DNA of 58,329 bases, the filler included, from Jimgerdemannia flammicorona (lineage: Eukaryota): the NCBI GenBank assembly GCA_003990765.1. It is 2 parts of 2 records of this genome, joined end to end, with 100 filler letters (N's around TTAATTAATTAA, not from the genome) between each part and the next. Parts side by side here need not be neighbours in the genome. Positions count along the whole stretch, not along the records: positions 29,222 to 58,329 come from RBNJ01000517.1; 1 more part is not named here. The stretch is one strand, 5' to 3'. Of the stretch, positions 20,439 through 53,888 are shown one piece after another. The first letter of the stretch is position 1. Each line of letters starts with the position of its first letter. The position numbers and the translations under genes are program-made. Under the pieces are notes generated by a model that was not told the DNA's origin, did not search any database, and saw nothing but the letters and a program-made list of their open reading frames with translations.

Positions 20439-20504
20439 GTATGATCTCTCGCCTTTGGACGAGACCTCGATTCTCAGGTTTTTGAAAAACAGTTATCTTA
20501 CATT

Positions 20505-23613
<3,109 letters not shown>

Positions 23614-25990: not shown

Positions 25991-25991
25991 C

Positions 25992-26316
25992 TAATAATTT
26001 TAATAAATCAAAGGTCTAATTCAATTTGATTTAAATCAAATCAAAGGTCCAATTTGATTTGAAATTTAATTTAAACTCTATTTTTTAAAATTCAATAATT
26101 CAATAAAAACATATCCAAATTTAATAATCTTTAGCTTGTTAGATTTCTCTATATAATAGAAATCTAATAAGCTAAAAATCTTTAAATTTATATGTATTTT
26201 CATTAAGTTATTATATTTCTAAAAATAGGGTTCAAATTGAATTCTCAATTTAATTTAATTTGAATGACTCTCAATTTAATTTAATTTGAATTAATTTGAT
26301 TCATTTGAGAGTACTA
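25992..26316. mobile_element. hAT MITE copy (left end degraded, no matching TSD)
   Basis: Same subterminal repeats and hairpin. Right end GAGAGTACTA. Confidence 0.8.
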
Positions 26317-26418
26317 TATACTAGTATTACTGAAGTAAAAATAGTTAAATATGTTATTTTTTACAAAAAGATATATATATAGCTTAGCTCACTTTATATA
26401 GTTTGAGTAAAAAAAGTC

Positions 26419-26453
<35 letters not shown>

Positions 26454-26589
26454 TAATTTTTTTTTTTTTTTTTTTGTTCTATGAACACTAAGTCTCTTTA
26501 TTAACTAATTTATAATAAATATATAGTTCTTATATCATACTAGTAGCTCTAACCTAATTTCATCCTACTCTATTCTAATACTCTCTCTC

Positions 26590-27280
26590 TTTCTTATTCT
26601 CTTAGTAGGTAGAAGAGAGATCAGTCTGATGAACTTCTTAAAGAGATTATACAGTCTTTAGGCTTAGTAACTGAAGAGAGTTATTGAGCTGTTGAGAGAT
26701 AGATAAGTACTATTAATATATATAGAGAGTCTGAGAGATAAGATTTTCTCTTAGAGAATTCTCTAGTAATTTACTATCTATAATTAATATAAGAAATAAT
26801 AGATACTTATAGTACTAGAGATTCTAATGAGAAGTAGTAGAGAGTACTTATTGTATTGACTTATACTGATATAATAATGAGAGTAAGATCTAGTAAGATC
26901 CTATAATATAGAGATAAGATAAGCTTCTATTAGATAGTATACTACTAATAGACTTTAATATTAGTAAAGGAGTTAAGTATCAGTAAGGAATAGATCAAGA
27001 TCTGTGACTAGTGAGTTAGCATATAATAGATATTAGTGAGGCTTAGAACTAGGCTAGAGTCTGATACTTAGTAGAAAGGATTTATAAGAAGAGTTATAGA
27101 TAGATAATAGTATAGTTATATTTAAAAGAAAGAAGATTGGAAAAAGAGAATATATTAGAGTAAGATAGAGTAGAGTAAATTAGATAGAACTACTGATATA
27201 ATAAAAACTATGTATTTATTATAGACTAGTTAATAAAGTAAGTTTGAGTAACTATGAATATATATATATATTTAAAATAA
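26590..27280 (+). mobile_element. LINE ORF2 C-terminal relic
   Basis: Aligns with 4450-4900 (e.g. TAGATCAAGATCTGTGACTAG near 26990 vs TAGATCAAAATCTGTGACTAG near 4563). Confidence 0.6.
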
Positions 27281-27712
27281 GATATATTACAAGACTATTA
27301 TATTTTTTATATATTAGTTTAATGCTATTATCATTCTATTCTTCAAGATAAGCAGTATAGTAATTATAAAACATAGGAATTACTTATTGAACTATCAGAA
27401 ATATACTTAACTAAGCTCACTTTTACTTTAGACAATATCTGATATTAAAAGCTGAGAAGATAGATATTATGTCATCATCTAGAATGAGACTTATATATTG
27501 AAGATATATAACTAGTATAGGAATATATAGATGATAAAAAGATCAAAAATATATGACTATCATAGCTGTAAGATTAAGATAGATAGAGATAAAAATGAAG
27601 CTTAGGGAATTTTCCTCCAGACATCACTTGATAGAGCCTTGGTTCTCTATAAAGAAGATGATAGCTTTATATAGTAATGCCTAGTAATGTTTATTATTAA
27701 TGTATTACAATC

Positions 27713-28907
27713 TACAGTCTCTTTCTCCGTTATCTTACTGGTCACAAGGTTTGGTAGGCAACCTTCTGAGTCCCCTTTTCTCTAATATTACCCCCTCTAT
27801 CTCAGGTTGGTTTGCTATACCTATATAGATATAGTGGGAAGAGGGCAATAGTGATGAGTTGCCCCTTTATCAGTATCAGATTGGTGTCTTCTCTACTTTT
27901 TTGTGGTTTCTGATGTCTTTGGCTGTGTCTGGAGTATATTTGTTTTGATGTGGTATCTTTTTCCTTTTACCATCACCAACAAGGTGCTGTCTTGATATAT
28001 CTTGGGCTATATAGAGAGTCAGCCAACCTTGGGCATTAAGTATTCAGTATAGGTTACCTACAGGTCCTTAGTACCTGTGGTAAGGCCCTCTGGCTTTGGT
28101 GAGCTTTCTGGTGAGTGCGGTTCTGATATGTATAAGTGACTGTTTTTTGGGTGTTGTCAGGATGGGAGAGGAGATGGCCATCATAGATAGGAGAAAGGAT
28201 AATAATGGTGAACCAGTAGGATGTCAGGCTGGGGGTAGTCGTTGGGGCTGGGGCAGGTGCTGCTTTGGTGGGGCCTTTTGATTGGTGCAGTACAGTTAGG
28301 TGGTAGGTGTCACTCTCGGTTTCTTTTGGCAGTCAGCGGGGTTGGGTCCCAGTCATCAGGGGGGGTCAGGGGGCCTGAGGCTATTCATTTCAGGCATCTT
28401 GGCTATACTCAACTGGAACCGAGAACTGACATAGCAACATGATTGAGGCCCACAGACTTGAGTAGTGGGATATTGGGGGTTTCCTCTTACCTCATGTATA
28501 AGTCCTTTACTTATCTCAACTAGAAGAACCAGGCTCTACCCACTGTGTTGTACTTTGATGAGGATTTTTCTTTGTCTGTCATTCTCTTTGGAATGGCAGA
28601 GGCTATTCTATTCAGCTTGGGTGTGGCCTTATACATATGTTGGGTTCTCAGGCATGTACTTTCAGTTGTTGGCATATGGTTGGGTTTCCTCTGGTGGTAG
28701 GGAGAGCATAGTACACAGAATGAGGTATGGGCCTACATCAGCCCTACTGTGCCTGGTATGGTCAAGCTGCTGGACAATAGCTAGCCTAGGTTAATGGGGG
28801 GGCAGTACTTGGTAGGTGGTGGGGGAGGGTTTTGGCCTATATAGTCTAGGTTCCCTTCCAATAAAAATCCGCGGGACATGAGTCCGTTAAACAAAAAAAA
28901 AAAAAAA
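27713..28907 (+). mobile_element. ~1.2-kb poly(A) retroposon (5'-truncated LINE of another family, or SINE-like)
   Basis: 14-bp TSD AATGTATTACAATC at 27699-27712 and 28908-28921. AATAAA at 28860 and a poly-A run at 28893-28909. Confidence 0.85.
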
Positions 28908-29121
28908 AATGTATTACAATCCATCTGACTCATGGAAATGCCACATTCAAACGGCTCTGCGAATGGTCCTATTCTTGGGGCTGGTCCAGAAAAGAAACGG
29001 TTCAACTGTATAGGCTCTACCATCACGATCCGCCATTAAAGTCTGAATTATTGTCTAGAAGAAAGCTCGATTGTAATTATATATACAACCCATTTGTTTT
29101 TTTTTTTTTTTTTTTTTTTTT

Positions 29122-29221
29122 NNNNNNNNNNNNNNNNNNNNNNNNNNNNNNNNNNNNNNNNNNNNTTAATTAATTAANNNNNNNNNNNNNNNNNNNNNNN
29201 NNNNNNNNNNNNNNNNNNNNN
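29122..29221. other. Assembly gap with artificial six-frame-stop linker TTAATTAATTAA
   Basis: A 100-bp N block with TTAATTAATTAA at 29166-29177. Confidence 0.97.
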
Positions 29222-29506
29222 TACCTTCTATTCTTCTATCAGATAGAGTTATCCCAAGGTTGGATTTTGGAAAACCTCTGAAATAAGATATTTTGGAAAA
29301 GTTTGTAGGCTTGCTGGCTTATATAATCAATATAAAATAAGGAATTGATATACTTTAAGAGATATTCAAGAGCTCTTATTATAAGAAATAATAAGAGCTA
29401 TAATATTTCTATTTTTCTAGAAGCTCTCCTCTGATAAGTTAGAAAATATATAATCAAATTTTTCAGTTTCTTCCTACTATTTTGGTAGGTTTTTAGGAAT
29501 TCTTGA

Positions 29507-29547
<41 letters not shown>

Positions 29548-29812
29548 GTGGGGGTTTTTAATTATTTAACCTTTTTTTTTTTAAATTTTTTTTTTTTTTA
29601 TTTTATTTTTTAGAAAGTAAAGAAGGATTGATATAAAGTGCAATTGATAGATTTTTTAGATTAATAATAGCAATACTAAGAATCTCAAGGCCAAATTCAT
29701 TCAGACTTAATTCTATATCTTAAGTCTACTGGATTTTAAAATACTGAGAATTCTGTGACTTGATCTTCCAGAGAGCTAGACAACAATACTCTATATATAG
29801 GATTGAGAGAAA

Positions 29813-30156
29813 TAGTACTTCCAAATAAATTGAATTGGGGATTTTTCAATTCAAATTAAGTTCAAATTAAATTGAATTTGAACTAATTTGAGGGCCCAAT
29901 TTGAACCCTATTTTTCAAAATATAATAACTCAATAAAAATACATCTAAATTTAATGATCTTTAGCTTGCTAGTTTCCTCTTATATAGGGAAATATAACAT
30001 ACTAAACATCTTTAAATCTGAATATATTTTTGTCAAGTTATTACATTTTGAATAATAGAGTTCAAATTGAATATTGAATTAAATTAGTCTTTAATTTGAT
30101 TGAATTGAATCAAATTTGGGTCAAATTCAATTCAATTTTATTTATTGAGAGTATTA
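29813..30156. mobile_element. hAT MITE copy
   Basis: TAGTACTTCC...GAGAGTATTA termini, TSD GAGAGAAA/GAGAGGAA. Confidence 0.88.
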
Positions 30157-31549
30157 GAGAGGAAGTATAATATTAGCATCCTGTTAGATTATTAAAAAAG
30201 AGATATCAAAATTAATTTCAAACTGCAATATTTTTAAAGTCTTCTACTTTACTAGCTGGCATCCTAAATTTACATCACAATTACATTATCTTAAATACCA
30301 ATATGAGAGAAGTTGTTTTAATAGTTTGGAGAGAGATGTTAAAAGATCAAGTAAATTAGAATTTAATAAATATTTACAAGAAGGTATTTAAATTTCAAAA
30401 AGCCAGTTTATATGGCAAAGCTCAAACTAAAACCAGTTCTTATATATTAGCTGGTCATACTTTGATCTATCTAATAGAATATATTACTGTATCATATCTC
30501 TCAACAATTTTAAACCAAAAATTGAATAAGATAAATAAGAGAAATATAAAATAGCTATTATAGAGATAGCTTTACTTCTCTTCAATACTTTCTATCAGAT
30601 ATGATAACAAATTCCTCTATTTCATTCAATTTAATGCTCTCTATTATCTGTCACTTAAGGAAATTTCTGGATATATCTCAATATCCTCAGTATCCTTAAT
30701 ATCAGTACTAGAGTTCTCAACTTTAGTATTAGCATTCTCTTTAGCTTTGAAATTACCTAGAATAGATGGAGATCAGATGAATCTAGATTAATCTAGAGTG
30801 CATTTTTAACTTAGAGAATTTCAGTTTGAGCAGAATGTGGCAAAAGTCAGCAACATATTTTTTGGACAATATATAGGCTCTCTTACTCATATTAATTAAG
30901 ATATATACCCATTTTACTATATATTATTAAATATAAAGAACAGTATACTTCAAAATCTGAAGGCCTGTTCTAAAATTTAGCTTATAGTATTGGAATTTCT
31001 CTAGAGTCTAATATGATGATGATATTTCATTTAAATCAACCATATGGCTCAATAATTATAAGAGATAAGAAAGTTTTAAATAGTTTATTATTGAGTATTT
31101 ATCATAAAACTTTGAAAGCTATATACTATTATAATAAATTTTTTGAAAACTTAAAAAAGCAGAAAAATCTATAGATATATATATTACATGTTTATTAATT
31201 GATTTTTATTTTATATCATAGTTTAGATATTTAGCAGAAATTTCATTTGTTCAGTAAGAGCAATGTCTTTTGTTAGGGAGGTTTTTTTTATAAAAAAATT
31301 ATCTTTTTTAATAGGCTTACTGACTAATCTATACTGGTAGACTTAAGATTCAGTTTGTTAAATGAAGATTCTATCTTGAGGGTAAATTTGAACTAATCTT
31401 AAGATAGATTTATATCAACTTGAATTCATCACATAATAAATTTCAATTAATTTGAATTCATTACATAATGATTCAAACTGACTCAGATCAGTTACATGAT
31501 TGGCAAATTTGAATCAGGTTTAAATTTCTCTGACTCAATTAAAGTACTA

Positions 31550-32090
31550 TCTATAGATAATCTATACTGCTACTTAATGTCTAAGGTTAGCTAACTCTCT
31601 ATATAGTCTATGATATACTATAATGATATCTTATTAATGATAGTAAAAGAGAGAAAATACTATACCAAAATAAGTATACTCTAGATATAGCCAAAGATAT
31701 CAGAAACTGCAAAAAAGTAGAGAAATTACTAATTCAATACTGATAAAAGAGCAACCTATTACTATTATCTCTCTCCTACTACTCTGCTCAGATATACTAT
31801 ATTTAGTATTACTACTATACAGAAGGTGGGTTTGGTATCTTAAATTATTGAATAACACTATACTTCTATTCAAAGTACTGCTAAATTATATTTCTCACAT
31901 CTTTGATCATTATATCTCTCTTTATCCTAAATTATATAAAATATTATCAATGTCTCCAACTATAATCTCTTCTGATAAGCTTACTGTCTAGTTCATCACT
32001 ATTAATCCTATTACCTAATATACTCTTACTCTTAACTCTATAAACCTCACCTGGAAGCTTGGTCTGCTTAAATAGAACAGCTTTGAGAAC
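31550..32090 (+). mobile_element. LINE post-RT relic
   Basis: EGGFGILN motif near 31820. Confidence 0.5.
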
Positions 32091-32129
32091 TGATATAACT
32101 TTAGGCATAGAAGATATACTGTGATATAA

Positions 32130-33210
32130 TTTTTTTTTTTTTTCTAGTCTATAACAAATATATGATTATTATATCACACTGGTCGCCTCAACTCAACTCC
32201 ACCCTATTCCACCCTAACACACTCCCTCTCTCTCACTCTCATCTTCTTAAAAACTACTAAAGAATTAATTACTATAATCTATCCACTACTCCTCTTGTAT
32301 ACCCCTTCTATCAGATATCTACAATGACTCTCTTGAGGGCTCCACCACCTCTACCAGTCTGATAGAATATCCACCATCAACTTCTCCAATCTTGTCATCC
32401 TTTCTTCTAAAACTATCTGTCTTCTATCCTCAAATATATACTATTAGTATCCAGTCAACTCTATTCATATTACTAACACCCACTCAACAGTAAGTCACTC
32501 ATTACTAATATATCTCCCCAACTACTCCCTCAAGTTATTCCATCTCTCTCTCTTCTTACTATCATATCACTATACTCTTAGCCAACTTCCAACTATTACT
32601 CAAAAGTTACTAAGTATTTTATACTCTCTCAACCAATGTTCTGATATCTGTACAATTCTCTCCTCTTACTTTATATTATAACAATTCTTATACTCAAAAA
32701 TTCCTCCTTCTATCAAGTATCTTAATCTAAAGTTCAATATAATATTTTTTTCTCAAGATGAGTCACTACATCACTCAGAACTTTAGAGAAAACTACTGCT
32801 ATATCTCAGTACTCTAAGACCAGATTCCAGCTCAGTCCTATATCTTATTAATACCTGCTGACTATCAGTCTATTGGCCATAGATTCTGTCTCACTCTCTA
32901 TTAATACTCTATGCTAGCACTAATGTCAAAGTTTATCAGCAGTGAACTATCCAATAGAAGCCTGTCCTATCTCTATATTACAGGGTTCCATTGTATCTCT
33001 CTCTCATTATCTCACTAATATAGACTAACATAGTGAGCCCCCTCTACTACTCTTCAAAAGAATTCTCTATATTATAGTATAAACTACATATCTCTCAGTC
33101 TAACCATTGATAATAAATTACTGAAAGAACCTCTAGGGGAGAACCTTGTCTCTCAGATTCCTATATTAAAGATATCTACTCTCTACTCTATAACTCAAAA
33201 GCTCTTATTT
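32130..33210 (-). mobile_element. LINE 3' fragment with poly(A), truncating the Gypsy 3' LTR
   Basis: Poly-T at about 32130-32143. The sequence is similar to 14150-15250. Confidence 0.7.
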
Positions 33211-35718
33211 ACTATTATCTCTGAGATATTTTATATAAGTTAGTTACTATCTTAGTTACTATCTGGATAATTATAGAATATATAGTATGGCTAAATATAA
33301 TATATAACTTCCAGAATACAGTATATTTGAGATACAGTATCTTTAAGATTTAGTTATCTCAATTTGGTTATTTGTGCTATTTATATAATTTCTATAGTAA
33401 CTGGTTAACTATGTAAGTAACTATAGTATACTAAGTATTCATATCATCTAGTTATACAATATATATTATTTGCATACTATATATCAGTCCTTACTAAAGG
33501 ATGGTCTGTCCTCAGACTGTTTTTTAGTCATTATTCCAGTAGGTTTCTTATAGTTTAATAGCCATTTGAGAGCAGTATGATCAGTTATCAGAGTGAACCC
33601 TTATCTGATAAGATAGTACATAAATAGAGTAACTGTCTAAATGACTATAAGGTATTTCATTTTAGTACTACTATAATTAGTTTGCTACTAGTTAGTAGCT
33701 TGGCTTATATAAGCTATTATATAGTACTATTGATCAGATCTTTCTTAGACTAGAACTGCTCTAAGGCTAGTTTTGGAAGCATCTGTATATAAGATGAATA
33801 GCTTTTGCAGGTTGGATTATATAAGAATTAGTACTATAGTCATAGAGTACTTGAGTTCTTTTAAGGATAATTCTTATAGTTCTATCTATTTATATAATAC
33901 TTCTTTCTTGAGAAGAGTTCTAATTGAAGCAGCAATTTGAGTGAAATCTTTAATCAATCTTTTATAATAGGATACTATATAGCATCAGAGATAATACTAT
34001 TTCCTTCTAAGTCTTAAATACTAGTTAGTTGTTGATCTTCCCAGTTTTCTTTGGTTCTGTATGAGTTCCTTTTTAATAAACTATAAACTTAAGGAATTTG
34101 AGTTTCTGTTTTCCAAAGTATCATTTCTTAGCATTAAATCTCAGATGGTTCTTATAGATAAGCTAGAAGAATTCTTCTAAATAATATAAGTATTTTTTGA
34201 AATTTGCTGAATAGATATTAGAGTTATCTATATATATAATCAAATAGTAATAGATTAGTGAGCTATAGACTAAGTTCATTATTCTCTAGAAGATTGGAGA
34301 TATATTACAGAGTTTAAAGGATATTTAGATATATTAAAACAGTTTTTCTAGGATAAGAAAAACTGTTTTCTGAATGTTCTTAAGGTTTATAGAGATTTTG
34401 TAGAATTTTGCAAGAGATCTATACTGCTGAAATATCTGACATCTTGTAATTAGTCTAGGAGATCATCAATTCTGAAAAAGAAGTAGGCATCTTTTTCTAT
34501 AACTGAGCTAAGCTTTCTGTAATCTATATAGAGTCTCTATCCTCCTTTCTTAGACATAATAAGTATAGAGCTGGTCCAGAAGCTAGTAGTGGGTTAGATA
34601 ACTCTATTGTCTAAGAGTTTCTAAATATATTCTTTCTCAAATATCTTTAGATAATAAGATATTCTATAAGACTTCTATCAGATAAGTATTGAATATTCTG
34701 TATTTATATATGCTATAGTAATATAATGAATTATATGATAGATTTCTATAGTCTGTAATAAAGATGCTCTGATATTTATGAAGGAGTTCTGCTAGTTGCT
34801 ATTATTACTAAGATGTCAATTTTTCTCCAATATTAGTAGAAGGCTTTACTTTCTCCTAGATCACAGAGAGGTTTTTTCTTTCTTCTGAGATCTTCTGCCA
34901 TTTTCCAATAGGTTTAGTTTATAAACTTCTCTATAAGTCTGGTTGAGATAGAGCATAAGATGATCTATAATAGTTCCTTTTAATAGAATGAGGCTTTCCT
35001 AGCTTTGGTTAATTGCTTGAGAATACACAGAATTCATCTTGTCAAGAAATATATATCCTTTTATATCTAGGTTCTTGATATTCTCATTAAGTTCAAAGAA
35101 GAGATTTCTAGAATCAGATAGTATAAAGATTTTTGAAGATAGTCTGCTCTTCTGATTCTAGGATGAGGTTCTTATATAGCTTAACTGATTGATAGTATAC
35201 TTGCTAGAGAGTATTTTTCTTAAAGTGGTTAATCTGGAAGAGATATACTTCTTTCTTATCTGAGCTTTCAAATCCTTCAGTTTGTCTTATACCTTGAGTT
35301 AGTTTGGAGACTTCTTATAGTTGAGGAGTTTTGACCTTCATGAAGACTACTTGTACAATCTTTTATTCTTTATAGATTTAGTAGTATTCTATACTGCTGT
35401 TGTTCAGGATGATCTTGATTTTGTCTATATATTCAGAGTTTATAGTTTCTTTTTCTACTATTATTCCTTTTCTAGTAAGTTCAGATCTTAAGATTAGTTA
35501 AATATAAGTTTCTTTGGATAGCTATATAGCTAGTCTTATACTGAGTACCACTGTTCTTCCAGATTTAATAAATTTATTCTTAAGGCTGTAATAGTTATAT
35601 CTTATATCTTTCTGATGAGCTTTGATTAGGAGTTTGGCCTTAAGATATAGCAGGACATACTTGGTAACATTTTTACTAAGTTTGGATTATTCTTGGGCTG
35701 AGACTTAGTTGATATAAG

Positions 35719-36075
35719 TAGTGCTCTCAACAAATTGAATCAAATCAAATTTAACTCAATTCAATTAAATCAAAGACTAATTTGATTTAAGATTTAATTT
35801 AAACTCTATTTTTCAAAATATAATAACTCAATAAAAATATATCTATATTTAATAATTTTTAGTCTGTTAGATTTCTCTATATAAGAAGAATCTAATATAT
35901 TAAAGATAATTAAATTTAGATATGTTTTTATTGAGTTATTATATTTTACCTCAATTTAATTCAAATTTGATTCAATTTGAACTTTATTCAAATAGAAAAA
36001 TCTCCAATTCAATTTGATTTGAATGACCCTCGATTTGATTCAATTCAAATTGATTCAATTCATTTGAGAGTACTA
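35719..36075. mobile_element. hAT MITE copy inserted in the Gypsy pol region
   Basis: TAGTGCTCTC...GAGAGTACTA termini, TSD GATATAAG/GATATGAG. Confidence 0.9.
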
Positions 36076-39000
36076 GATATGAGCCCCCAGGCTCTAAAGT
36101 TGAGGTGAAGCCATCTGACTCCAGTAGAGAGATCTTGGAGATAATTGATTTCTCTTTATCTTATAGGATCTAGAGTCTCTATGAAGTTGATAATATCTTC
36201 TATCTATTCTTGATAGGTTTTATATCTAATAAGGGCTAGAATGTTATTTTCTAGATTATATATCTTGAGAGTCTTTTTCTTTGATTTTTGGTCTGGTTTC
36301 TTTGAATCTGAGTTCTGTTATCTTCTTTCTTCAGTAATAGATAGTAAAATCTTAGCTGAGGTGAATTTTCTAATATAGACAGTTTTGGTAATCTGAGTAT
36401 TTTTTATGATTATAATATCCCATTGCTTAAAAATGTAGTTCTCAGTTATTGACTTCTTACTACCTTGGAAATCAATATCTATTCTTATCATAAGTTAGAG
36501 AAAGGGTGGCTAAGAGCTATACTTCTGTTTGAGTAAAGTGATCTTATTTATTAGCTTATCTTTTTAACATTATAGTAGTTTTTTAGAAGATAGTTATCTA
36601 TGTAATTGTAATTTGAGATCCTGGTCTGTAGTATCTCTATCTTTTATTAGTTCAATATGTAGAATTGATAGCAGTAGTCTTAGAGAGTATGAAAGACTAT
36701 TTGATCCTAATATCTTTCTAGCTAAAAGGCTCTTTTCTGATATGTTTCTTGTCTTTAGACAATGGTGACTATACTTGGCCCTTCTTCAGTATTCTATAGA
36801 TCATCATCTTCTAGTAGTATCTAATAAGAGTTATCTCAGAAAATAAGTTCAAGGAGTTCTTTCTGCTTGGGGACTTTTGTTTAGAGATTTCTTTATCAGA
36901 TATTTCTTAATTCCAGATTATCTCTGTAGCCTCAGATATAGGTATCTTCAGAGAGTGGTTATATTTCTTCTTTCTTTCTAAATTCAGAACAGACTGTTCC
37001 AGGTGAATTCCTTGTTTTAATAATCTTAGAGGAGTGTTTGAGATACTTGTTTCTCTTTAGGTAGTTAGGACATCCTCTGGCTTATTCTGTAATAGCTCTG
37101 ATTGTGATGAAAATAATATCTTTAGTCCATATATTATCTTTTGGTCTATCATCTACTACTTTAATTTATAGATTGAGTCTAGGATTATTTTTATTTTCAG
37201 ATTCTTCTTCTTTCTCTATAGTAGATTCTTTACTACTGAAATACTCTTTCTAGATAGTAATCTTCTCCTTCTTCTTCAATTACTTATAGCTTGTCAATTT
37301 TATTCTATACTTCTTTCTTCTATAATTGAATTTGAGTATCTATTGATCAATATCAATAACTATATTCATTTTTTTTCATCTAGTTAGTACCAAAAATCAT
37401 ATTATAAGTAACAGCTTTAGTGATATAGCTTTTGAGATAGAGAATTAAATATGTTCAAAGAAGATAATGATATTTTATACTTCTTTAAGGAGTTGAGTTT
37501 GGGCTCTATCTGCTACTATGATGCTGAGATTAGATAATCTATCAATAGACTACTAGAGGATATCTAGAAATCATTTGACAATAATACAGATAGCTACTTC
37601 TATATCAATGAGGATTTTTGTCTTTTGTCCTCTAATATCTCCATACTGGTATTTGCTGATATATTTTTCTGCAGCTTAAATAGTGATTGATACTAGTTTT
37701 TATTGTAGAATTGAGACTTGGCAAGTGCTGGACCTGGTGGTTCTTAATAGTTTATTTTGAACTCTAATAGGTATCAGTTATAAGAACTATAGAAGAGAGA
37801 CTTTCATCTTAGCTTCTTGAATCTTTTGCCAGGCTTATTATAGATATCTCTAGATATAATCTTTGGAGTATTTCTCTTGAGCTTTGGAATAATAGACACT
37901 TGTTCTTCTTGCTCTATTTTTTTATTCTCTAATAGTAGTTTATTTGTTTTGAAGACAAAAGATGAGAGAGATCTGGAAGGTATCTCAACTTACTCCTCTT
38001 TATCTTTTTTATCTTTTTTTTAGATAATTCTTCTACTAGTATTTCTGGATGGCCTTTCTATTGATCTCTTCCTTTTCTCAGCTATATAGACTGTTTTTTT
38101 AGTAATGATCTTGGTTGAGTATAGATCTAGATTACTATAGTCTTCACTATTACTTTCTTCTTCAAAGTCTTTGACAGGATGAGTCTCAGTCTTCTTGTAC
38201 TGAATTGCATTCTTTTAATTTAGTGGTTCTGAGTCTCTTTAATTACTTATTCTGTCATTATATTCAGTAGCATAGTGTCCAAACTATCTACAGTGAAAGT
38301 ATTGAACTTGAGCTCTATCTTGAACTAAATACTTTCTTTCTTTTTGTGACTGGTAACTCCTGTCCTCTCTGAGTAAATAGTCTTGATTCCTTCATGATAT
38401 GTATCCTCTATTGTTCTATAGATAGTCTCAATTTTTATATATGGTGAGTTTTTCAATTTGCCTAACTAATGGAGTTGAGGTCTTGGATTTTATTTCTCTC
38501 ATTCTTCTACTCCTTGACTGGTTTTCCTTCTTCTGGTTTTCCACATTCTTAAAGGAGTCCTTATAGGGTTTTGACCAAGAGATCTTTCTTGTTATCTTTC
38601 TTATCATAATTACTCTAGATAATTCCTTATCTAATATTAAAAAATTCTTGAGCTATATCTACTTGTTCTTTAAGCTTTCTGATACCTAAAGTGCAGACAT
38701 ACTGAGTGATATTTGGATGAATCCCATTCATAAAGATTATAGAATCTATAATATCTTGGTTGGTAATATTGAATCTAGCTATATATATTCTTTTCTGAAT
38801 TCTGATAAAGAATGCGTTAGTGATTCTCTAAGATTCATCTTCATTTCTATAATAGATTCTTGATTTTATAGTGGGTTTTATTTTTTGCATATTTTTCAAT
38901 AAGCTAGTAGATTATGATATTATATTCTACTTCTTAGGTTAGTATTTTATAGATGGCTGATCTAAAGTCTGAATGTATATCACTTGCTGCTTAGTTGAAA

Positions 39001-39763
39001 ATTTCCTTGGCTGGTTCTCTGAGTTGAGACTTATAGATAGCAATCTTTCTCTGAGCAGAGAGATTCTTTAGAGCTGTGATTCCTTCAATTCTATCTTGGG
39101 TTTTCTTCTGGGTATCCTGTAATAGTTGTTATTAAGATCATCACTGTCCTTTGTTTTCAATTCTGGTTCTAATTCTGATTCTGATTCTGGTTCTGATTCA
39201 CTTTCTAAGTTGTTACTGAAGCTTGGGATGTTTAGCTATCTTGAAGATATATCATATTATTGATCTTGAGCAAGGTGCAGTAGGTCTGGGAATTTTTGAA
39301 GAAACTATTTCTGATCCTTCTGATTCTGTAGTTGCTGGTCCTAGTAATGGTTCAATGGGAGAGACTGGTGGAGCTTCTGAGGGGAACTATGATTATATAA
39401 TGAAATCTTCTAATTCTTGTATATATAAGCTCATTGAAGTTTTGGGCAGAGCTGTCTGTATTGTCTGGTTGATCTAGTTGATCTAATTGATCTGGTTGGA
39501 TCAGGTCTCCTGATAGTAAATCTGTTGGTACTGGTTGAGGATTCTATGCTGTACTGGCTTCTGGTTGGGATCCTTCTGATGCTGGATAATTGGCAAGTCT
39601 TGTGGTGATTACTTTCCTTCCTGTCCAAATGCTGGTGATCACTCATTTTTCTGTAGTGGCAGAGATTGGTGTTGTATCAAATATATCCAGTTTGGCTGTT
39701 GGGTTCTTGTGAGCTGAAAAGTCATGTAGATTTAAAGAAAATCTTCCCAGTTGAGCCCCCAAA

Positions 39764-40476
39764 TGTAACATGCCAGCTCAATGGAGGCAAATTACAAGGT
39801 TGGGGGTTTGTGTAGTTTGGCTTGAGTTCCTAGTACTTTGTCAAAGCAACAAAATGTTCAATGGTTTCTGGTATCCTTGTTGGTGTTTAGCGGTATAATA
39901 GACAAATCTGGATACAGCGGTTGAATCTGGTGGATTTCCTAATCGGGACGGTTCTTGAGTGTAGCGGCGATTTGTATGATTTCCTTCTTGAGTGGCGGAC
40001 GATCTCTGTGTAGCGCGAGTGGATTCCTTATGTGTGCGATTTCTGCGTGACGATCTTGGTGGGTGGATTTCCTTATGCGATTTCTGCGTGACGATCTTGT
40101 TCGTTACGCGGACGGTTTGGCGGACTTCTTTATTAGGCGGATGGTTTACTGGAAAATGGCGGACGACGCGGATTACTTGAAAATAACTGAACCGGCGGAC
40201 TTCTCAAATGCTCGAAAAATGGCGGACTTCTTGAAAATGGCGGCTCTTTCTTAAGCGGCAGATTACTTTGACTGACCTGACAAAGTTACGTCAAAGACTG
40301 GCTTCGTTTGCGCGAATGAGGTTTATTCACTAGGGTTGTTGTCTCTGGGGTATTTTATACAAGTTGGTTGCTATCTTGGTTGCTAATGTCCCTACCATCA
40401 CGAGACTGTGATGTCACCAGAGTTACAGCGTCTCGAAACTGACCGTCCGATGTGATTTCGCCATACTTTTGGCACA
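39764..40476 (-). repeat. 5' LTR of the Gypsy element (713 bp), CpG-rich
   Basis: Reads TGTGCC...GTTACA on the minus strand and is homologous to the solo LTR at 52167-53380. Confidence 0.9.
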
Positions 40477-42071
40477 GATTGCTGTTGCCCCTGTCTTATG
40501 GCTGTGGGCAGGGCTTTCAGGATCCAGGATACCAGGATACCGGGTTACTAGGTCACCAAGTCACCAGGGCGAAGAGCGCCGGTGGGATAGGGCGGCGGGC
40601 GCTATAAAAATACAGCTGGTTTTCCTATTCTTATTTAGTAATAAAATAATAGTAATAAAATAAACTAATAAAATAATAATAATATTATAATAATGCCTAA
40701 AAAAAGTGGTGACCTCCCAACGATATCTTGGCATCTAATCTTCGAAATTTCAAATTTCGCAGGAAACAGACGAAGTCGAAAAGTCAATCGCTACCCAGCC
40801 GCCATGCGTCTCCCAACTGCAAATCTTCATTCAACAGCAAGTCGTCGCATAGCCGCAGAGCGTCAACCTTAGTCAATCTCTCGGCCGATAATCGTCGGCG
40901 ACTATTTGCCACCCCCAACGAGGCCGATTGTTATCCAGCGAGGTTAATCGTCGCTCAGCGGCAAAGCGTCGCAAGTCGTCGTCTAGTTGCAACAAGTCGC
41001 CCAGCAGTAAAGCATCGCCCAGCGAGGGTGATTGTCACCCAGTGGGGTCAGTCATCGCCCAGCTGAAAAATGCCGTCCAGATGAACCGTAAATCGTCGCT
41101 CAGCGGCAAATCGTCGCTTAGCGGTAAATTGTGGCCTAGCTGCAGGAGACTGAAACTGGGTATATATACATGGGCAAGGAAAGATCCCGGGAAAGGTGAA
41201 GGGGAGGCTAGGTCAGTCGGCGATGTTTATGATATTATCGAGTGGGAAAAGATCGGGGGTTATTCGGATGGGCGTGTCATAGCGTGGTGAATACGAGTGG
41301 ACGGATACGGACAGCCGCTTCAGCTATAAAATCAATTGTTGGAATACAAATATCACGGACAAGACGAGCTCAAGGACCTAGGCCTTGAAGATAATTTGTA
41401 CCGAGCTTGACAACTTCAAGAAGGTGGACCTCAAGGCGCGTAACCTCTTCACCATCCCGATTTCCTTCGTGGTAAAGCCTTCGCGATCATGTCCCTCGAC
41501 ATCTCTAAGAACAGTTGCCGATCGACTTCTTCCAGATGTTGACGCGCGGCTGCGCGAGCTATGCCGACATGGTCGATCCCATGCTCGTTTTGTTGCAAGA
41601 TTGTTTCAAAGTCGTCAACGGCGGTGTTTCCTGGTATCGTGCATGGCAAGCCATCTAAGATGGTTCCCGCCAATCTGTTGTATTCAGGTTTGTGTATAAG
41701 TTGAACCGCTCTTACATTTCTTCCCCTAGTTCATCACGCGGCTTCGTTGAGTGGAACCTTTTGTCGTTCCCGATATTTTAGTCTTGGCATTCCCATGCCC
41801 ACGACTACCCCCCTGCTATCCTGTATCCCTCTATCGCAAAAATTGCGAAGATTTAAAAAACGAGTAATTGAGAGCAAAAACAATGGGAACTAGAAATATT
41901 TGTGCCAAAAAGAAAAATATCTCAAAATAACTCGAAGATGCCTGAAAGGAAAATACCCACAAATCCCTGTAATAGATGTCAATCATATAAGAAATGAATA
42001 AAGAGTGGTTGTATTCAATATGCAAAATTAGAAACGATCTTTTATGCGATACTTAGTTTGAAAGCCCAAAG

Positions 42072-42500
42072 TCACGGTCCTCCCGAAAGGCTAGTCCATG
42101 CGATCCCATGGTTAATGTCATTGATGGAGAAGGCGTAAGTATGGTTGACCTTATCCAGATGGAAAGTCACTACATCGCCGCGTTCTGAAGACGGACGCCA
42201 TAGTCGCACACACCACCCGACCCAGTTACTTATAGATGTCGGCCAGTCCATGAGTAGAATGCCCATGCCGATGAATTTACAATCGAAATTTGTGAACTCC
42301 TCCTCCACCAACCGCAAATCACAGAAGCGATTAGACTCGCCATACAATCCAACGGATTCAACGACAATGTCCCATTCATAAACCCCATCCTACGTCATCG
42401 TCCCGGAGACAGACATCCTCGCCGTCTGCAACACCGTCGCCGACTAAACGACCTTCGATTTATCCCGCTGATCTGCCCCGTTGGACACGGGAGTTCTTAC
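42072..42500 (-). pseudogene. B30.2/SPRY-domain pseudogene fragment
   Basis: The pattern GVYEWDIVVE...GW...GDVVTFHLDKVNHTYAFSINDINHGIAWTSL is typical of SPRY. In-frame stops lie upstream. Confidence 0.6.
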
Positions 42501-43153
42501 ATGCATGGTAAAAAAATGACATGTAGTGCGGAGATGTCTTGCAAACTCGTCAACTGCCTCCGTGAGGCTCTTCACACGATGGAGTGAGGTCCACATACTT
42601 TATCATGTTTAGCTGGGATTATGTATTAACTATTATGTTCAAATGGCTGAGCATATTAGTCCCTATACGTTTGTAATAGTGGGGCATGTATGACACCGAC
42701 ATATTGCCGTTGAGCCTGTCAATGTGTGGTTCGTGGCGAGTATGTTGTCCTTGGGGGATGGAAGCCCCCATATATAATTCAAAGCCTTCTAACTGATTAC
42801 GCCGCTATCCACGTGAATCAAAAACGGCAATTGCGGCATGTGATGTTGCAAATTTTCTATTTTTACCGCCTCATGTATTTTTCGAGACAGCTGGTTGTAA
42901 GAGGGATAGATAAATATCTGGAGAATGTTACAAAAAGTGAGGGAATTCATCGGGTGGCTTTCAACCATGAAAGCTTTGGCTCGAGTTCAGATCACCAATA
43001 CCGGGCTGGTTATTTAATCAGTAAGTTTGCTCTCGGCTTGTGTATATCTGTGTTGTGTGAATCACCATGGGGAATTCCTTATACGGGTATAATCGATGGT
43101 TACTTAAAACCCGAATATGACGACAATTAAGATATCTGAAATGAAAAGTTGTT

Positions 43154-43440
43154 TCAGTTCCTCGTAGGCAAATTATATGCAATTCCTAAAGGTAAGTTCC
43201 TTGTATGCTTTCCAGGTTTATACCGGATGATAATCTTTTCCTTTTTCTCCTTTTTCTCCTTTTCCTCCTGTCGATTATTTTCAGCGACACTTTGGTGTGC
43301 TAAAAGGAAATCTTCACCCACGCCAAAATTGACAAACGAAATGTCACCATACTCCATGCTTTTGAAGGTGAAGATGGCGAGACCGTGCTCAAACTCAAGG
43401 GAGGCCGTCGATTCCTTTGTAAGTTTCTGCGATCCTCTCT
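43154..43440 (-). CDS. Possible exon of an unknown gene
   Basis: Protein-like open frame (STASLEFEHGLAIFTFKSMEYGDISF...) preceded by a possible CAG acceptor. The full model could not be resolved. Confidence 0.3.
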
Positions 43441-44177
43441 GATAAAGAGTTGTTCGACGCATGCAAATCGCACTAATATATATACAAATTAAAACATTTT
43501 GCACGGCAGCTTTGTCACAGCCCTCCTAGCAAGGGTAAATTATCTTGAACCACATAATTACGTCATATTCCAACTTGGTAGACTCGAGGTTCGAGTAAAG
43601 TAGGAGAGTTCATATGAAACTGCGGGCTTCGAGGACAACGGAACGGTGGAAATTGCCCGTAAACTTGCGGAGAGCCAGGACGGACGGTTTTCTGGCTTAG
43701 AAGAGATTATCGTGTCATAACAAAGAGATTTTCTTCAGAATAATCGAGGATTTTCTAACATGATTAATAGAAGTAGGGCAAAACTTCTAGGTGAAAAATA
43801 GCTCACTGCCAATCGAGGTGAGCACCTTGACCGTAATTCGGAGATTTTTTTCATTCTGATGAGACTGTTACAACATATTATGCTTTGTCTCTGCACCAAA
43901 TCTCCATAGCCATGTTTCAATCCCTGAAAAATCCACCCTTTGTCTAATTTTAGAAAAGACGGAAGCTAAAGTAAGTGTCTATGCAACATTCTGGAAACAA
44001 CAATCAGACATAAGGAATTATGACTCGCTGAAATAAGCATGTAACAGCTTGCTAAATATGCCTCTAAACAAAGCCGCTTATGCGTAAGCGAATTGGCTGG
44101 ATGTAGCATGCTGCCATCACAAATACATAAATAAGCTTTTGATTACGAGATCCTCCTTTGCCGAGAAAATCTATACA

Positions 44178-45689
44178 ATGCTTACTAATACCGGAGAAAA
44201 TGACGCTCAACCAAACCGCATGAGCCAGCTGAATAAACCAGCCATAATTCTCGTCGGAAAGACAGGTAATACCATTCAACGATGCAAGAAAATCCATTCA
44301 ATTCTACTATCACTGAAATTCTGTTAATGTTTGCGTAAAGGCGTCGGAAAGTCAGCCTTTGGGAATCAACTCATCAACTTCTTGACCAGGACTTCCGAGG
44401 CCATTTTCAAAGTGGGCTCCAGCATGGTATACTCCCCATTTCCATTACGTATATATATTTGTCTTTTACCTTATGAGTGGGCTGCTGTCCCGTATTTTTT
44501 CGCCAGTTTTCGGAAACAGAGATCGCTCAGAACCATGCTGTCGCAATCGCGGGCAAAGAATATGAACTCGTCGATATGCCCGGTAGGTTGTGGCAGCGAA
44601 GTCATTACTCTACAAAAGACGTCCACAGACCAACGTCATTGCTACTGTGCTAGGTATTTTCGACACGTGCGGTACCGATGGGCAAATACTTGCCGAGATC
44701 ACCAATGCAATTCAAATGTGTGCTTATGATATTCAGGCGGTTCTGTTTGTGCTAGGTAAGAAACAATCGTAGAGGTCTGCTTTTTTTTTTTTTTTTTTCA
44801 GAAATTGACGCAAAGACATAACACAACACATATCTAACCTGTATAAAAATCGCGTTAATTTCCCGCAGAATTCGGTCGTATGACCCCTGAGGAGTGTCGC
44901 GTCGTCTCTCAAATACTAGGCTTCCTTGGCGCTGAAGTCAAGACGAACTTAATTCTGGTGTTCAGCAAAACCGTCAGTGCCGACATGACTATTGAGCGTG
45001 GCCGGCTCGAGCAAGAGCTCATGAGGGAACCACCTGTGCGTGGGGGAAGGTCACCCATCAACCCGCTAAAAGAGCTTGTGCTCGCCGTCGACAAGCGATG
45101 GGTTATTTTCCCAAATCTCTCCATTTTCCCTGGCCCCGAAAACCCCATCTGGTTGCGCGAGGCCGAGATTTTAATTCAGTACATAGCATCCTTGGAAACG
45201 CTATACACAACCGATATTTTCGTATGTATCGTTGCAATCATGAGATTGAGTATTGGATGTTTTTGTTTTACTAAATGCAGCCCACATACTACGCTTAATA
45301 TATCTCAGGAACGATTCCGTGAGGAGCGTGAACGCCAAGAAAACGAAAAGCGCCTCGCGGAAGAGGAAGAAAAAGGCAAGTTCCGCAAACTTCAGGAGCA
45401 CCAAGAGGAATTGCTCGAGCTGGCAAAAAAGAGCGAAAACCGCCAGCAAGAATTGGAGAAAATGATGGAGCAGCAGAAGAAGGAAATCCTAAATGCAGCC
45501 CGCGAGTCCGCTCAACTCCAGGAGAAACAAAGGAAAGCGCACAATGAAGAGATAAAGAAGAAGGCCCATTCCGAATCCATATTAAAAGGCCATAAAGACC
45601 GAATCAAGCAACAACAAAATCAATTGGAAGCTATGCAGAAAGATTTCGAAGAATTCAAAAGGAAACAATCGGGGTGCATCATTTCATAA
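44178..45689 (+). CDS. AIG1/GIMAP-like P-loop GTPase with coiled coil and C-terminal CaaX (CIIS)
   Basis: Phase-consistent exons 44178-44265, 44341-44426, 44507-44582, 44654-44755, 44869-45221 and 45309-45689. G1 GKTGVGKS, G3 DMPG-IFDT, AVLFVL, GRMTPEE, G4-like ILVFSK, an E/K/Q-rich tail and GCIIS*. The start could instead be ATG 44220. Confidence 0.88.
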
Positions 45690-46869
45690 ACCGGATCGTG
45701 TTGTGCAAACTCTGACTGACGGCTTGTTTCCAGAGCAATATACGCGCTTTTTCAATTTTTTTTTTTTTTTTTTTTTTTTAGCTCGGAGTCGCATTATGTC
45801 ATGTTCGGTTGACTCTTTCAATTCATGTAAATCCCTATAAAACGACTAGTTCGACTTCGGAAAATCTCTTTGATCCATATTTAAGATGATGGGCGCATAT
45901 ATGGTTGTCAAGCAAGGATTCTCGAACCGCCGGACTGACACGTATCTGAACCTTGAACTAACACGGTGCCGAAGGCTACCATTCACTAGCACGACATTCT
46001 TCGGCGCTTCCGTGCATCGGGACGTTTCAGTCAGCTAGAATTCGTTGTATTCATTGTCACCTTTGTCAGGAAAAAAGTTGCGCAAAAGGTAGTTCCATCT
46101 TTTAAACTGGGCGAACAATGATTCAAATACAAAATACGCAGAAGGCAAATATACGTTAACGATTTGCAATCCTGACGTAACACGTTCAATAAACCAATTC
46201 CACAATATGCCAATCGCACAAAGGCAATGAGACGAACTTGCGATATAAACGAAGCGAGCTATTTTTATTGTTGGATTCAACAACGTATGACCTCGTCCTT
46301 TTAATTGCATATACCTTATCGCAATTTTACACTACGAAAGCGAGTATATGGCGTGAAATTGAGCGTCTCCCCAAAGCAAGGTCAAGTAAGTTGCTACAAA
46401 TTCTTTAGGTGAAATCCCGTCGCTCATTCTACAGTGTCTCTTGCAACCTTTAATCACAGCTAACTATATGTCACATATCTTCCGTAATATTCCCGGTGAC
46501 CAGTTGGATACTTACAACGAGCAAGTTCTCCCTTAATATACTGATACACTAATTTAGTTGAAACAAACAAACAAGGAAATGTTCCCAGAACAAAACGAGT
46601 ATAATTAGTATCGGTTCGCGTAGCAAAAAGAGCCTGATAAGTATCGATTCCCGGAACATAGAGAATGGAGATCTTTGTGAAGCTGATGGAGCAAGTAACG
46701 CCAGAATAACAATGTAACAGATCTCAGAAAATTAAATACAGCTAATCACAACATACCAGACGGTATGAGAATCAGAAACAGTGACAGCAAGAAATGCAGC
46801 AAAAAGAATGTATCGGGTGTCGTGAAACCAATAGTGCACTTCACTTCAAAGAAAGGACGGGCGAGGATT

Positions 46870-47600
46870 TAAGGAATATGGGTGTGCTGAATTCCATGTA
46901 AGTCGGAACACGGATCTCGGACTATAAATTGTAATACGGGTGTCGTACTATCGGAATATGGGTTTCGCGCTTAGTTCCGAGTAAATTAGAATACTGACAT
47001 CGTGCTGGCTCAGAGTACGGGTTTCTTGCTGAATTCCGCGTATGTCATAATATGGTTAGGGTTAGGGTTAGGGTTAGGGTCGTCGTTCTGCCTAAATTCC
47101 GCGTAAGTCAGAATATCGATGTCGTTCTGCTTAAATTCCTTGTAAGTCAGAATACCGAAAGTCAGAATACGGACGTCGAGCAGGGTCGGAATACAGTATT
47201 CATTCTTAGCTGTACGGCGGAATATGAGAAGTCAGAATACATACTGGATGGGAATACGGGTGCCGTGCAGAATTCACTGTAAGTCAGAATATGGACGTCG
47301 TGCTGTAAATCGGAATACGGGCGTCGTGCTAGGACGGAATATGGGTGTCGTTCTTAATTCCCTGTACGGAAGTCGGAATACAGGCTAGATGGGAATACGG
47401 GTGTCGTGCTGTAAGTCGGAATGTGGGTGTCGTGAGCTGAATTCCCTGTGAGTAGGAATATGAGAAGCCGGAATACGAGAAGTCTGAATATGGGGGGTCG
47501 TGCAGGATCGGAATACGGGTGTCGTGTTAAATTACTTGTACGTCAAAATATGGACGTCGTACTGTAAGTCGAAATATGGTTGTCGTGATGGGTCGAAATA
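46870..47600 (+). repeat. Complex modular minisatellite (GTCGGAATAY / GGGTGTCGTGCT / GAATTCCYTGTAA modules)
   Basis: Roughly 25 degenerate copies of (G/A)AATAY(GG) with shuffled downstream modules. Confidence 0.9.
47056..47079 (+). repeat. Interstitial telomeric repeat (TTAGGG)4
   Basis: Four perfect TTAGGG units. Confidence 0.95.
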
Positions 47601-47943
47601 TAAAGCAAACGAAGGTACGGATACCCTCATCTGAAAAATAACGACATGTCCTTGGCATACATACGGATTATGATGCTATCAATGCTAAAGTGCAAAACCA
47701 TTGACATGGCCGCGAGACATTCGCAGTCTCAAGCCGCACGACTTTGTACGAAATCCCCACACCTTTGTATGTCTAATTGGTACTCTTGTAGAATTCTCAT
47801 AAATCAAGGAAATGAGAGAATTTTAATATTAACAGTTGGAAGCTCAAAGATGGAATCTTTTCCACACCAGCGATTGGTCATCAACTCTTCCTACAAGAGA
47901 ATCAACTTCTTCATTGCTTTGCACCCATTCCACCTTTCCCAAC

Positions 47944-49540: not shown

Positions 49541-50243
49541 AAAGCCGTAACCAAGGCGTAACGCGAAATCTTAACGCTTGTCTTGCAAAGTTTTCAAACA
49601 CTTTTAATTGAAGTGTATCTGTTTTAAAGGTGCCAATATGTACCAGTGTCATGTAGTTCAACATACTCAACATATAAATAAAGGAAAATATCAAAGATCG
49701 AGCACGCGTTCTTTGGTAAGGAGAAAAATATGGTGGTTTTGAACCAAAAAGGGACCATCCATAGCGGGATGATTCATGCTCATCATTCGGTGCTACCTTG
49801 TGTTTCACAAAAATATCAATTCAATCTGCAGCTAAGGCTGGAGGATGTCGAACAAAAAAAGATACCAATATTCTGATCCTAAGCCCTGGTTTAACACTGG
49901 CATACATAAGATAGTCTGTGATGCTCTCTGTACAAAAGTGCAAAGATCATTGATGTGGCCACGAGAATTTCATAAGATCAAAGTATATGACTTTATATAG
50001 AATTCTTACAATTTGTACATTTGATCTGGTGCTGTTGCAGAGGTTTCATAAATAATAGGGATGACATTAAAAATTGGAATTTAAATGTTAAAATACGATA
50101 AAATCAGCGATAAATTCATCAACTCACATCCAACAAGTAAATAATTTTCACCAACGCGAGAGGAATGGCTTTGAATTTGTATTAAAATAGGCGCCAAAAC
50201 TCTTCGTCTCCATTCCACCTTGTTCAGTTCCCATTTCCCCAAC

Positions 50244-50839
50244 ATGCTCATCATTGCATTCTGCTCCCTCTGTGTTTTCCTGGCTGCCTTAGTTCGCGGA
50301 TCGCCCAATATTGGAAACAATGATTTCGAAGGTGCAGAATGTGAGTGGACTCGGATTTTTGTCCATGGAAGTGTGTGCACCCACGTAACAAGACATTTTT
50401 CAGGCCCAGATGGTAAAGGCTCCTGTTTCGGTCCGTTTGGCCCCTGTGGTACCACCACGCTCAAGTTCTATGATCAAAGGACCAGTTGTAAATTTTCTTT
50501 CCTCTCTCTTTCTGTTCTATATTACAGTTTGTGCTATAATATCCGTCATCCCAACAAGTTGCAAATTTTGTGTAAACGAATTTGGCTTCAATGACGACTG
50601 GTAAAGATTTTATGGTGCGATTCAGTATCTTTCACTCAATTTATGCTTACTCACCCGAGACGTACAATAACCGGTTCAGCCGTAGCACGTTTTCGACATG
50701 CTGCTCATCGGGCTGCAATGCCATAGAGCCCCAAGCAGATCACTCCTTGCGAAACCGGACAAACCCAAAGTATCAAACCCTCTCAAGTCGCCAAGGGATC
50801 CAAGAAGCTGGCCAAAGCATCGAAAGCAAGGCGTCCTAA
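50244..50839 (+). CDS. Small secreted cysteine-rich protein, copy 2 (~137 aa, 10 Cys in the mature part)
   Basis: Exons 50244-50340, 50404-50487, 50528-50600 and 50680-50839 are phase-consistent, with splice sites conserved in the paralog. Hydrophobic N-terminus MLIIAFCSLCVFLAALVRG-SP. Intron 2 is only 40 nt. Confidence 0.72.
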
Positions 50840-53380: not shown

Positions 53381-53429
53381 ATACCAATGTTCCACAACTA
53401 TATATATATATATGGCATTACACTTTCGC

Positions 53430-53843: not shown

Positions 53844-53888
<45 letters not shown>

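Follow-up and report, generated by a model that had tools for sequence, protein, structure and literature searches.

Repeat-induced point mutation (RIP) as seen in Neurospora changes C to T at CpA far above CpT, CpG, and CpC, and in vertebrates transposons undergo a decay of CpG sites that is driven by methylation. Here, we compare with these and other described systems a 58-kb window (58,329 nt of assembly GCA_003990765.1, the whole stretch that was analysed) from Jimgerdemannia flammicorona, and in particular a degraded Ty3/gypsy element at 33213-40385; this one window is the scope of all of our results. As far as the extracts cited below go, the literature views mutagenic genome defence as a trait of ascomycetes, some basidiomycetes having a variant centred on CpG. 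The cited part of a 2021 paper states, with reference to other work, that RIP signatures are not detected in Mucoromycotina (PMC8647823), and that of a kingdom-wide k-mer survey from 2025 places repeat-directed signatures in ascomycetes only (PMC12543289). The relevant passage of another paper confines RID to Pezizomycotina and lists DIM-2-like homologs in Endogonales and Glomeromycota (PMC9963178). CG methylation of transposons is known from Basidiomycota (review, PMC13297926) and, in the section cited, is high at most transposon loci of Rhizophagus irregularis, in which a DNMT1-related enzyme is expressed (PMC8647823). The nearest alignment-based precedent, in the extract used here, is the RIP-like TpCpG hypermutation of Pucciniomycotina (Horns et al., 2012; PMC3318451). 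In Entomophthorales (Zoopagomycota), the passage cited reports RIP-index-positive windows from a composite index alone and with major caveats stated (eLife 2024; PMC11105155). Our search of the literature on RIP and RIP-like signals in Endogonales or Mucoromycota, which left supplementary species tables outside its scope, found no report of such hypermutation in Endogonales.

In the window, we observed a C>T process that is confined to transposons, acts on both DNA strands, has CpG as its prime target, and spares genes. Its outcome is RIP-like, while its signature is not that of RID-type, CpA-specific RIP. An earlier note on this DNA had proposed RIP-like CpA to TpA hypermutation in what looked like a non-Dikarya fungus. 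The latter point was borne out, the window being placed by the following exon.

53971-54309, minus strand: TCTP exon, recognised by protein identity and used for placing the organism.

Over 112 aa, this exon matches one J. flammicorona protein at 100% identity and a second at 99%, whereas the next best matches reach ≤84% (Endogone sp., 80%). The window is therefore from J. flammicorona or a species very close to it and not from an ascomycete, which places the host in the Endogonales (Mucoromycotina), outside the Dikarya. The genome comprises 240 Mb, with repeats reported at >77% (PMC10386755).

The window falls into two compartments, namely transposon blocks in which CpG is nearly absent (34 found in total vs. 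~854 expected) and a genic part in which CpG stands at expectation. By region, the CpG counts are as follows.

1-11400: 12 found vs. 208 expected, with 12 of 12 inside a single miniature inverted-repeat transposable element (MITE m1).
11401-14075: G+C-rich island, 139 found vs. 132.9 expected.
14076-19900: long interspersed nuclear element (LINE), 4 found vs. 239.5 expected.
19901-20700: G+C-rich island, 24 found vs. 29.6 expected.
20701-39888: 18 found vs. 406 expected.
39889-58329: genic part, 917 found vs. 863 expected, G+C 43%.

The states are nearly all-or-none, with observed/expected values of ~0 in most elements, 0.21 in one block, and ~1 in MITE m1 and in two long terminal repeat (LTR) sequences described below (LTR B and the outer part of LTR A).

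The Ty3/gypsy element, an unmutated relative of it, and its neighbour are laid out as follows.

32001-33212, minus strand: LINE-family fragment that abuts the 3′ LTR remnant, matches 14616-14907, and is G-poor on the plus strand.
33213-33261, minus strand: 3′ LTR remnant (copy C), the hypermutated first 49 nt found by alignment; ~11 nt more follow past a 6-nt gap, and then the LINE fragment.
33262-39751, minus strand: internal region, with 2 CpGs vs. 142.9 expected.
33535-34773, minus strand: block of reverse transcriptase (RT) and RNase H in one frame, 413 codons with 29 stops.
35261-35638, minus strand: dUTPase domain (E = 3.6e-16), upstream of RT inside pol.
~38251-38298, minus strand: gag zinc-knuckle-like motif, recognised by eye.
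39752-40385, minus strand: 5′ LTR (LTR A, ~634 bp), with the 49-mer (copy A) at its outer end, 40337-40385.
52144-53390, plus strand: unmutated relative (copy B) in the genic part, consisting of ~230 nt of an internal 3′ end (52144-52372) and LTR B (52373-53390).

The 49-bp match claimed in the earlier note stood exactly: 33213-33261 aligns with 40337-40385 without gaps at 40/49 identical positions, and the 9 differences include no transversion, all being G:C to A:T. On the plus strand, eight are A in the 33213 copy against G in the 40337 copy and one is T against C. With the G+C-rich copy as reference, 7 of 8 CpA/TpG sites, 2 of 5 CpC/GpG sites, and 0 of 6 CpT/ApG sites have changed, so that CpA (7/8) exceeds the rest (2/11; Fisher p = 0.0055). 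The contexts were thus as claimed (7 at CpA/TpG, 2 at CpC/GpG), except that "none at CpG", although true, is uninformative because the 49-mer holds zero CpG. Its purine/pyrimidine pattern occurs at only these two places in the window. Among the 49-mers from 39901 to the window end, 3 of 18380 have a purine/pyrimidine-perfect partner in 1-39700, and these three are presumably one and the same match in shifted registers. On the other strand, at 52373-52414, there is a third copy that has diverged further. When metagenomes were scanned with a degenerate 23-nt motif taken from the beginning of the LTR, one match (L001) was obtained, which had no BLAST match to the window and was set aside as due to chance.

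We read the two 49-mers as the beginnings of the 5′ LTR and of a truncated 3′ LTR in a degraded minus-strand Ty3/gypsy element. In the sense of the element, the copy at 40385-40337 opens the 5′ LTR beside host DNA, and the copy at 33261-33213 comes after the internal region, where a 3′ LTR would be expected to begin. The claim of two LTRs flanking one element therefore held only in part, the 3′ LTR being no more than a 49-60-nt remnant. We did not find the remainder of the 3′ LTR in four A+T-rich stretches searched on both strands (scores of 42-51.5, where shuffled sequences averaged 49 and reached at most 63). In purine/pyrimidine class, copies A and C agree at 49/49 positions, whereas copy B departs from copy A by single-base gaps and by mismatches, transversions among them; this is compatible with A and C being sister LTRs but is no proof of it. 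Copies B and C share internal sequence upstream of the LTR, and copy B (52144-53390) served as the ancestor proxy for 33215-33521 (copy C).

The element is of the Ty3 type by its RT and RNase H domains (PF17917, E = 2.8e-19, at 33526-33810; PF17919, E = 1.3e-14), with RT motifs seen by eye in the same frame. Its best homologs carry PF00078, PF17919, and PF17917, and the closest protein is only 39% identical. No integrase (rve) match was obtained in the element up to E = 5, and homolog similarity stops right after RNase H. As to the dUTPase, the nearest database relatives have dUTPase or NUDIX domains at that position of pol (P0142, P0140). The consensus of 16 distant homologs, a weak proxy, was taken for the ancestral states of the RT-RNaseH block; of 177 positions conserved in these homologs, 95 differ, and among these C>T/G>A alone accounts for 34, the reverse change for 2, and a single transversion for 20. 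The CpG loss ends within LTR A, where the inner part (39752-39888) has 0 CpGs vs. 5.9 expected and the outer part (39889-40385) has 36 vs. 25.3 expected; LTR B, which is longer than LTR A, has 57 vs. 57.2 expected.

A second family with the same change is the LINE, of which two long copies are present.

14093-20047, minus strand: LINE with an APE endonuclease (17250-17855) and RVT_1 (15567-16280) in the same frame.
11-5405, plus strand: older A+T-rich copy of the same family, G+C 29-30%, 0 CpG, 57% identical to 14075-19640.

The first has a G+C content of 45%, a very purine-rich sense strand (G 32%, C 13%), a pure poly(A) tail of 40 nt (14092-14131 on the plus strand), and a perfect 17-bp target-site duplication (14076-14092 and 20048-20064). 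CpGs at 14020, 14048, 14056, and 14071 lie just outside the duplication, and the flanks at 5-70 nt retain their CpGs; because CpGs run up to the duplication and are gone inside the element, the loss is confined to the LINE. Its endonuclease-RT frame carries 32 stops per 1000 codons, vs. 79 and 86 in the other two frames. Since long single frames persist with stops here and in the Ty3 RT-RNaseH block, the damage was done by point change and not by insertions or deletions (indels). We compared the LINE with six close fragments from ENA contigs (49-71% identical); 406 of 954 positions differ, of which C>T/G>A alone accounts for 156, the reverse for 42, and other changes for 208. The island at 11401-14092 and 20048-20700, G+C-rich and normal in CpG, lies inside the transposon block and is split by this LINE; it has no open reading frame (ORF) >176 aa, and a Pfam scan of one ORF (12881-13411, 176 aa) gave no match. 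Very long homopolymers occur at 22566-22674 (109 A), 53846-53885 (40 T), 29510-29546 (37 T), and 9425-9456 (32 T), and some of them are probably LINE tails.

The third family consists of hairpin-like MITEs, in which the terminal inverted repeats measure 12 bp and the target-site duplications 8 bp.

7787-8164: MITE m1, with a perfect 8-bp duplication and 12 CpGs vs. 8.7 expected.
9056-9365: MITE m2, mutated, with 0 CpG and one T/C mismatch in the duplication.
23695-23961, 25993-26320, and 29813-30156: sister copies of m2, found by sequence match.
35719-36075: MITE m6, nested in the Ty3 element, with one A/G mismatch in the 8-bp duplication.

MITE m1 is CpG-intact and has a G+C content of 30%, vs. 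17-22% in the other copies. The duplications of five copies show 5 mismatches in 40 compared positions, all of them transitions, and in a control 0 of 90 shifted flanks reached 6/8 identity. The earlier note's statement that mismatches within the MITE pairs are transitions thus held for the duplications (5/5), whereas a TCTP pair as named in that note was not located; the MITE bodies are mixed, with 507 transitions and 221 transversions in 15 pairs (ratio 2.3) and 53 vs. 35 in the hairpin arms. Majority-rule polarisation of MITE singletons was tried and gave an ambiguous result (24 C>T/G>A, 44 T>C/A>G, and 30 transversions); the majority base would be the mutated base if most copies were independently altered.

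Could old transposons simply have decayed neutrally with an A+T bias, no process being aimed at them? We regard that as very improbable. It fits the old LINE pair, which is rich in transversions (385, beside 601 transitions, at filtered sites) and in gaps (609 of 5785 columns), as well as the low transition/transversion ratio of the MITE bodies; since old copies carry many transversions, ordinary divergence evidently overlies the C>T process. The sister sequences, in which direction was taken from the G+C-rich partner, say otherwise, with 14 of 14 differences being transitions (9 in the LTR starts and 5 in the five MITE duplications) and with neither a transversion nor an indel; in the genic part, seven duplicated segments have 175 transitions and 120 transversions. 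By a hand estimate from the long-term LINE spectrum, the chance of 9/9 changes being G:C>A:T under neutral decay is ~4e-4. The near-total CpG deficit of the transposon blocks beside a genic part at expectation, the CpGs kept in the LINE flanks, and the direction ratios of 34:2 (Ty3) and 156:42 (LINE) likewise speak against neutral decay, and as regards the Ty3 element and the young LINE that explanation is already largely refuted.

The sequence context of the changes was scored in four comparisons from three transposon families (changed/total, with the percentages for CpA, CpC, and CpT in brackets).

LINE vs. six close fragments: CpG 24/38, CpA 39/173, CpC 45/243, CpT 13/115 (23, 19, and 11%).
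G+C-rich to A+T-rich LINE copy: CpG 2/2, CpA 163/325, CpC 135/317, CpT 138/403 (50, 43, and 34%).
Ty3 copy B to copy C: CpG 5/5, CpA 19/34, CpC 4/15, CpT 8/21 (56, 27, and 38%).
MITE m1 to four other copies: CpG 37/57, CpA 56/110, CpC 18/46, CpT 23/70 (51, 39, and 33%).

CpG is the highest context in all four, and CpA is modestly ahead of the other non-CpG contexts; CpT comes last except in the Ty3 comparison, where CpC does. CpA, in the larger data sets, exceeds CpC and CpT only ~1.2- to 2-fold. The change is not restricted to CpG, as 11-56% of the non-CpG cytosines were converted, depending on context and copy. The proposed CpA to TpA hypermutation survives as a directional C>T change of transposons with a CpA excess in the 49-mer; the CpA-specific, RID-type signature was not borne out, CpG being the most mutated context in every comparison whose ancestor proxy contains it.

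A composite RIP index calculated per kb is positive in many A+T-rich windows, and values >0 are partly a by-product of earlier CpG loss. When context-free C>T change was simulated from the CpG-free LINE copy, the product index moved from 0.93 to 1.04 and the substrate index from 1.38 to 1.12. Because context-free C>T alone shifts the indices, the composite index was not used as evidence. In the same simulation CpA observed/expected was 0.82, and the real A+T-rich copies are lower at CpA/TpG (0.56-0.74); at CpC/GpG they have 0.64-0.94 vs. 1.05-1.63 simulated, and CpT/ApG is spared.

Both DNA strands are mutated, and this bears on a further possibility, that a single-strand cytidine deaminase of the AID/APOBEC type acted, for example, on retroelement cDNA, and that the copies arrived already mutated. 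The commonest LINE changes relative to its close relatives (G>E 23, W>stop 18, G>S 11, G>R 9, and D>N 9) are all sense-strand G>A, many of them in GG, and the flanks and duplication of the LINE are unaltered, as editing of cDNA would predict. Per detectable site, however, neither strand is favoured (sense G>A 88/443 vs. sense C>T 33/126, p = 0.14), and the excess of G>A events in the LINE arises because its sense strand is G-rich; the two LINE copies give 317/787 for G>A and 121/260 for C>T. The per-site test led us to reject APOBEC-like editing of the LINE. Moreover, MITEs, which are DNA transposons with no cDNA stage, show the same spectrum as the retroelements, their duplications, which are host DNA, also carry transitions, and the changes in the 49-mer are C>T on the sense strand of the element, the opposite of what editing would leave. 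We consider this explanation very improbable, slightly more so even than neutral decay.

The best reading, to which we give about an even chance of being right, is cytosine methylation targeted to transposons and followed by deamination. The window would then cross the edge of a transposon island, and its Ty3/gypsy, LINE, and MITE copies would have been altered after insertion by C to T change. The elements would have been marked by cytosine methylation that was CG-dominant with a non-CG component, putatively by enzymes of the DNMT1/DIM-2 class, which a published survey reports for Endogonales, and the methylated cytosines would have been deaminated to thymine. CpGs would have been removed essentially entirely, C before A and before C more slowly, and C before T least. 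At the time of the Ty3 insertion the 49-mers would have been identical; the inner copy, which is continuous with the island, would have gained nine C>T changes, and the outer copy, beside genes, none.

Several points weigh against this reading. The non-CpG share of the change is large (G+C from ~45% to ~29%), and therefore substantial non-CG methylation or an enzymatic deaminating step is required. Steady decay would predict more intermediates than the near all-or-none CpG states contain, and MITE m1 is intact within a CpG-free block. LTR copies A and C may stem from different insertions, and the LINE lineage may have been CpG-poor already before this copy inserted. The ancestor proxies are relatives and not ancestors, the four MITE comparisons share ancestry, and everything rests on one 58-kb window.

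An alternative that we hold to be possible, though clearly less probable than targeted methylation, is a repeat-induced process, in which homology would be recognised, probably in the sporocarp at about the time of the sexual cycle, and deamination would be carried out by a DNMT-like, non-RID enzyme in the order CpG > CpA >= CpC > CpT. The mutations stay within the element and break off sharply at the LINE duplication, the CpG states are nearly all-or-none, and reading frames are kept while stops accumulate. A young-looking LINE, with its perfect 17-bp duplication and 40-nt tail, already has 32 stops per 1000 codons, and the repeats that were spared are short or diverged, namely MITE m1 (392 bp), LTR B, and, in LTR A, the outer part, which includes a variable tandem-repeat region. 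The 49-mer prefers CpA (7/8 vs. 2/11 for the rest); in the larger data sets, however, this preference is weak and CpG is the top target. According to the extract cited, the canonical methyltransferase DIM-2 of Neurospora can perform RIP, but its DIM-2-dependent form favours adjacent non-repetitive DNA (10.1101/2021.04.05.438447), and the LINE flanks here are intact. The mutated zone also stops ~137 nt inside LTR A and not at the end of the repeat. The report of RID from Pezizomycotina only (PMC9963178, passage cited) counts against the repeat-induced process too, as does the restriction of signatures to ascomycetes in the kingdom-wide survey (PMC12543289, part cited), whose main text does not name Jimgerdemannia and which may not have sampled it.

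As to whether the trigger is homology or chromatin and methylation, hints within the window point both ways. The all-or-none CpG states, the intact MITE m1 in a CpG-free block, the young-looking LINE that was nevertheless hit, and the sharp edges are on the side of homology. The boundary 137 nt inside LTR A, a gradient at 38900-39900, and the unmutated LTR copies on the genic side are on that of a chromatin domain.

Set against the described systems, the locus resembles the RID- and/or DIM-2-dependent RIP known from Neurospora and other Pezizomycotina in that sister sequences differ only by C:G to T:A, on both strands and confined to transposons, that stops accumulate without frameshifts, that A+T-rich relics lie beside genes of normal G+C, and that the 49-mer alone is CpA-rich in its changes. 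It differs in its host, a member of the Mucoromycotina, in having CpG and not CpA as prime target, and in that RID is reported absent outside Pezizomycotina in the passage cited (PMC9963178). With methylation-driven CpG decay it shares a CpG observed/expected of ~0 in transposons and ~1 in genes, together with a mild excess of products in the G+C-rich LINE copy (CpA 1.11, TpG 1.17). Unlike such decay, ~25-50% of the non-CpG cytosines were converted in the A+T-rich copies in an ordered way (CpA >= CpC > CpT), and the CpG states are nearly all-or-none. The TpCpG case of Pucciniomycotina, as described in the extract cited, is likewise a CpG-centred C to T change of transposons outside Ascomycota established from copy alignments (PMC3318451); it concerns another phylum, and non-CpG sites are also heavily altered here. 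With the Entomophthorales our locus has in common a RIP-like composition in a transposon-rich, non-Dikarya fungus, and DNA methylase genes are a feature of Entomophthorales in the section cited (PMC11105155). Unlike there, direction, context, strand symmetry, and element boundaries were taken here from sister or relative copies, and the index is confounded by CpG loss.

Other features of the window may be noted briefly. The G-rich block at 28001-29100 has an intermediate CpG deficit (observed/expected 0.21) and adjoins two 44-N runs (29122-29165 and 29178-29221). In the genic part, diverged tandem or dispersed repeats of ~100-130 nt at 46865-47601 have kept their CpG. An ORF at 48216-48602 (minus strand) matches glycosyl hydrolase family 65N/95 models only weakly and below threshold, and a stretch paralogous to it lies near 50488-50638. 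A gene with BTB and TLDc domains at 55098-56894 (minus strand), whose nearest homologs are 49-56% identical and come from JGI or Logan records, has a partial duplicate (53380-53752, 71% identical) beside TCTP. An Rfam search of the window gave no match.

Beyond the window, we tentatively suggest, as a proposal with somewhat better than one chance in four of being true, that Endogonales may run an active, RID-independent C to T defence confined to transposons, probably with an enzyme of the DIM-2/DNMT1 class and in the order CpG > CpA >= CpC > CpT. If this is true, RIP-like mutagenic defence would not be an ascomycete invention, and would either predate the split between Dikarya and Mucoromycota or have arisen more than once. 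If the process is genome-wide, it would offer a test case for the origin of such defences from ordinary cytosine methyltransferases, composite RIP indices would be misleading wherever CpG has already been lost, and it would help to explain how a symbiont tolerates so many transposons.

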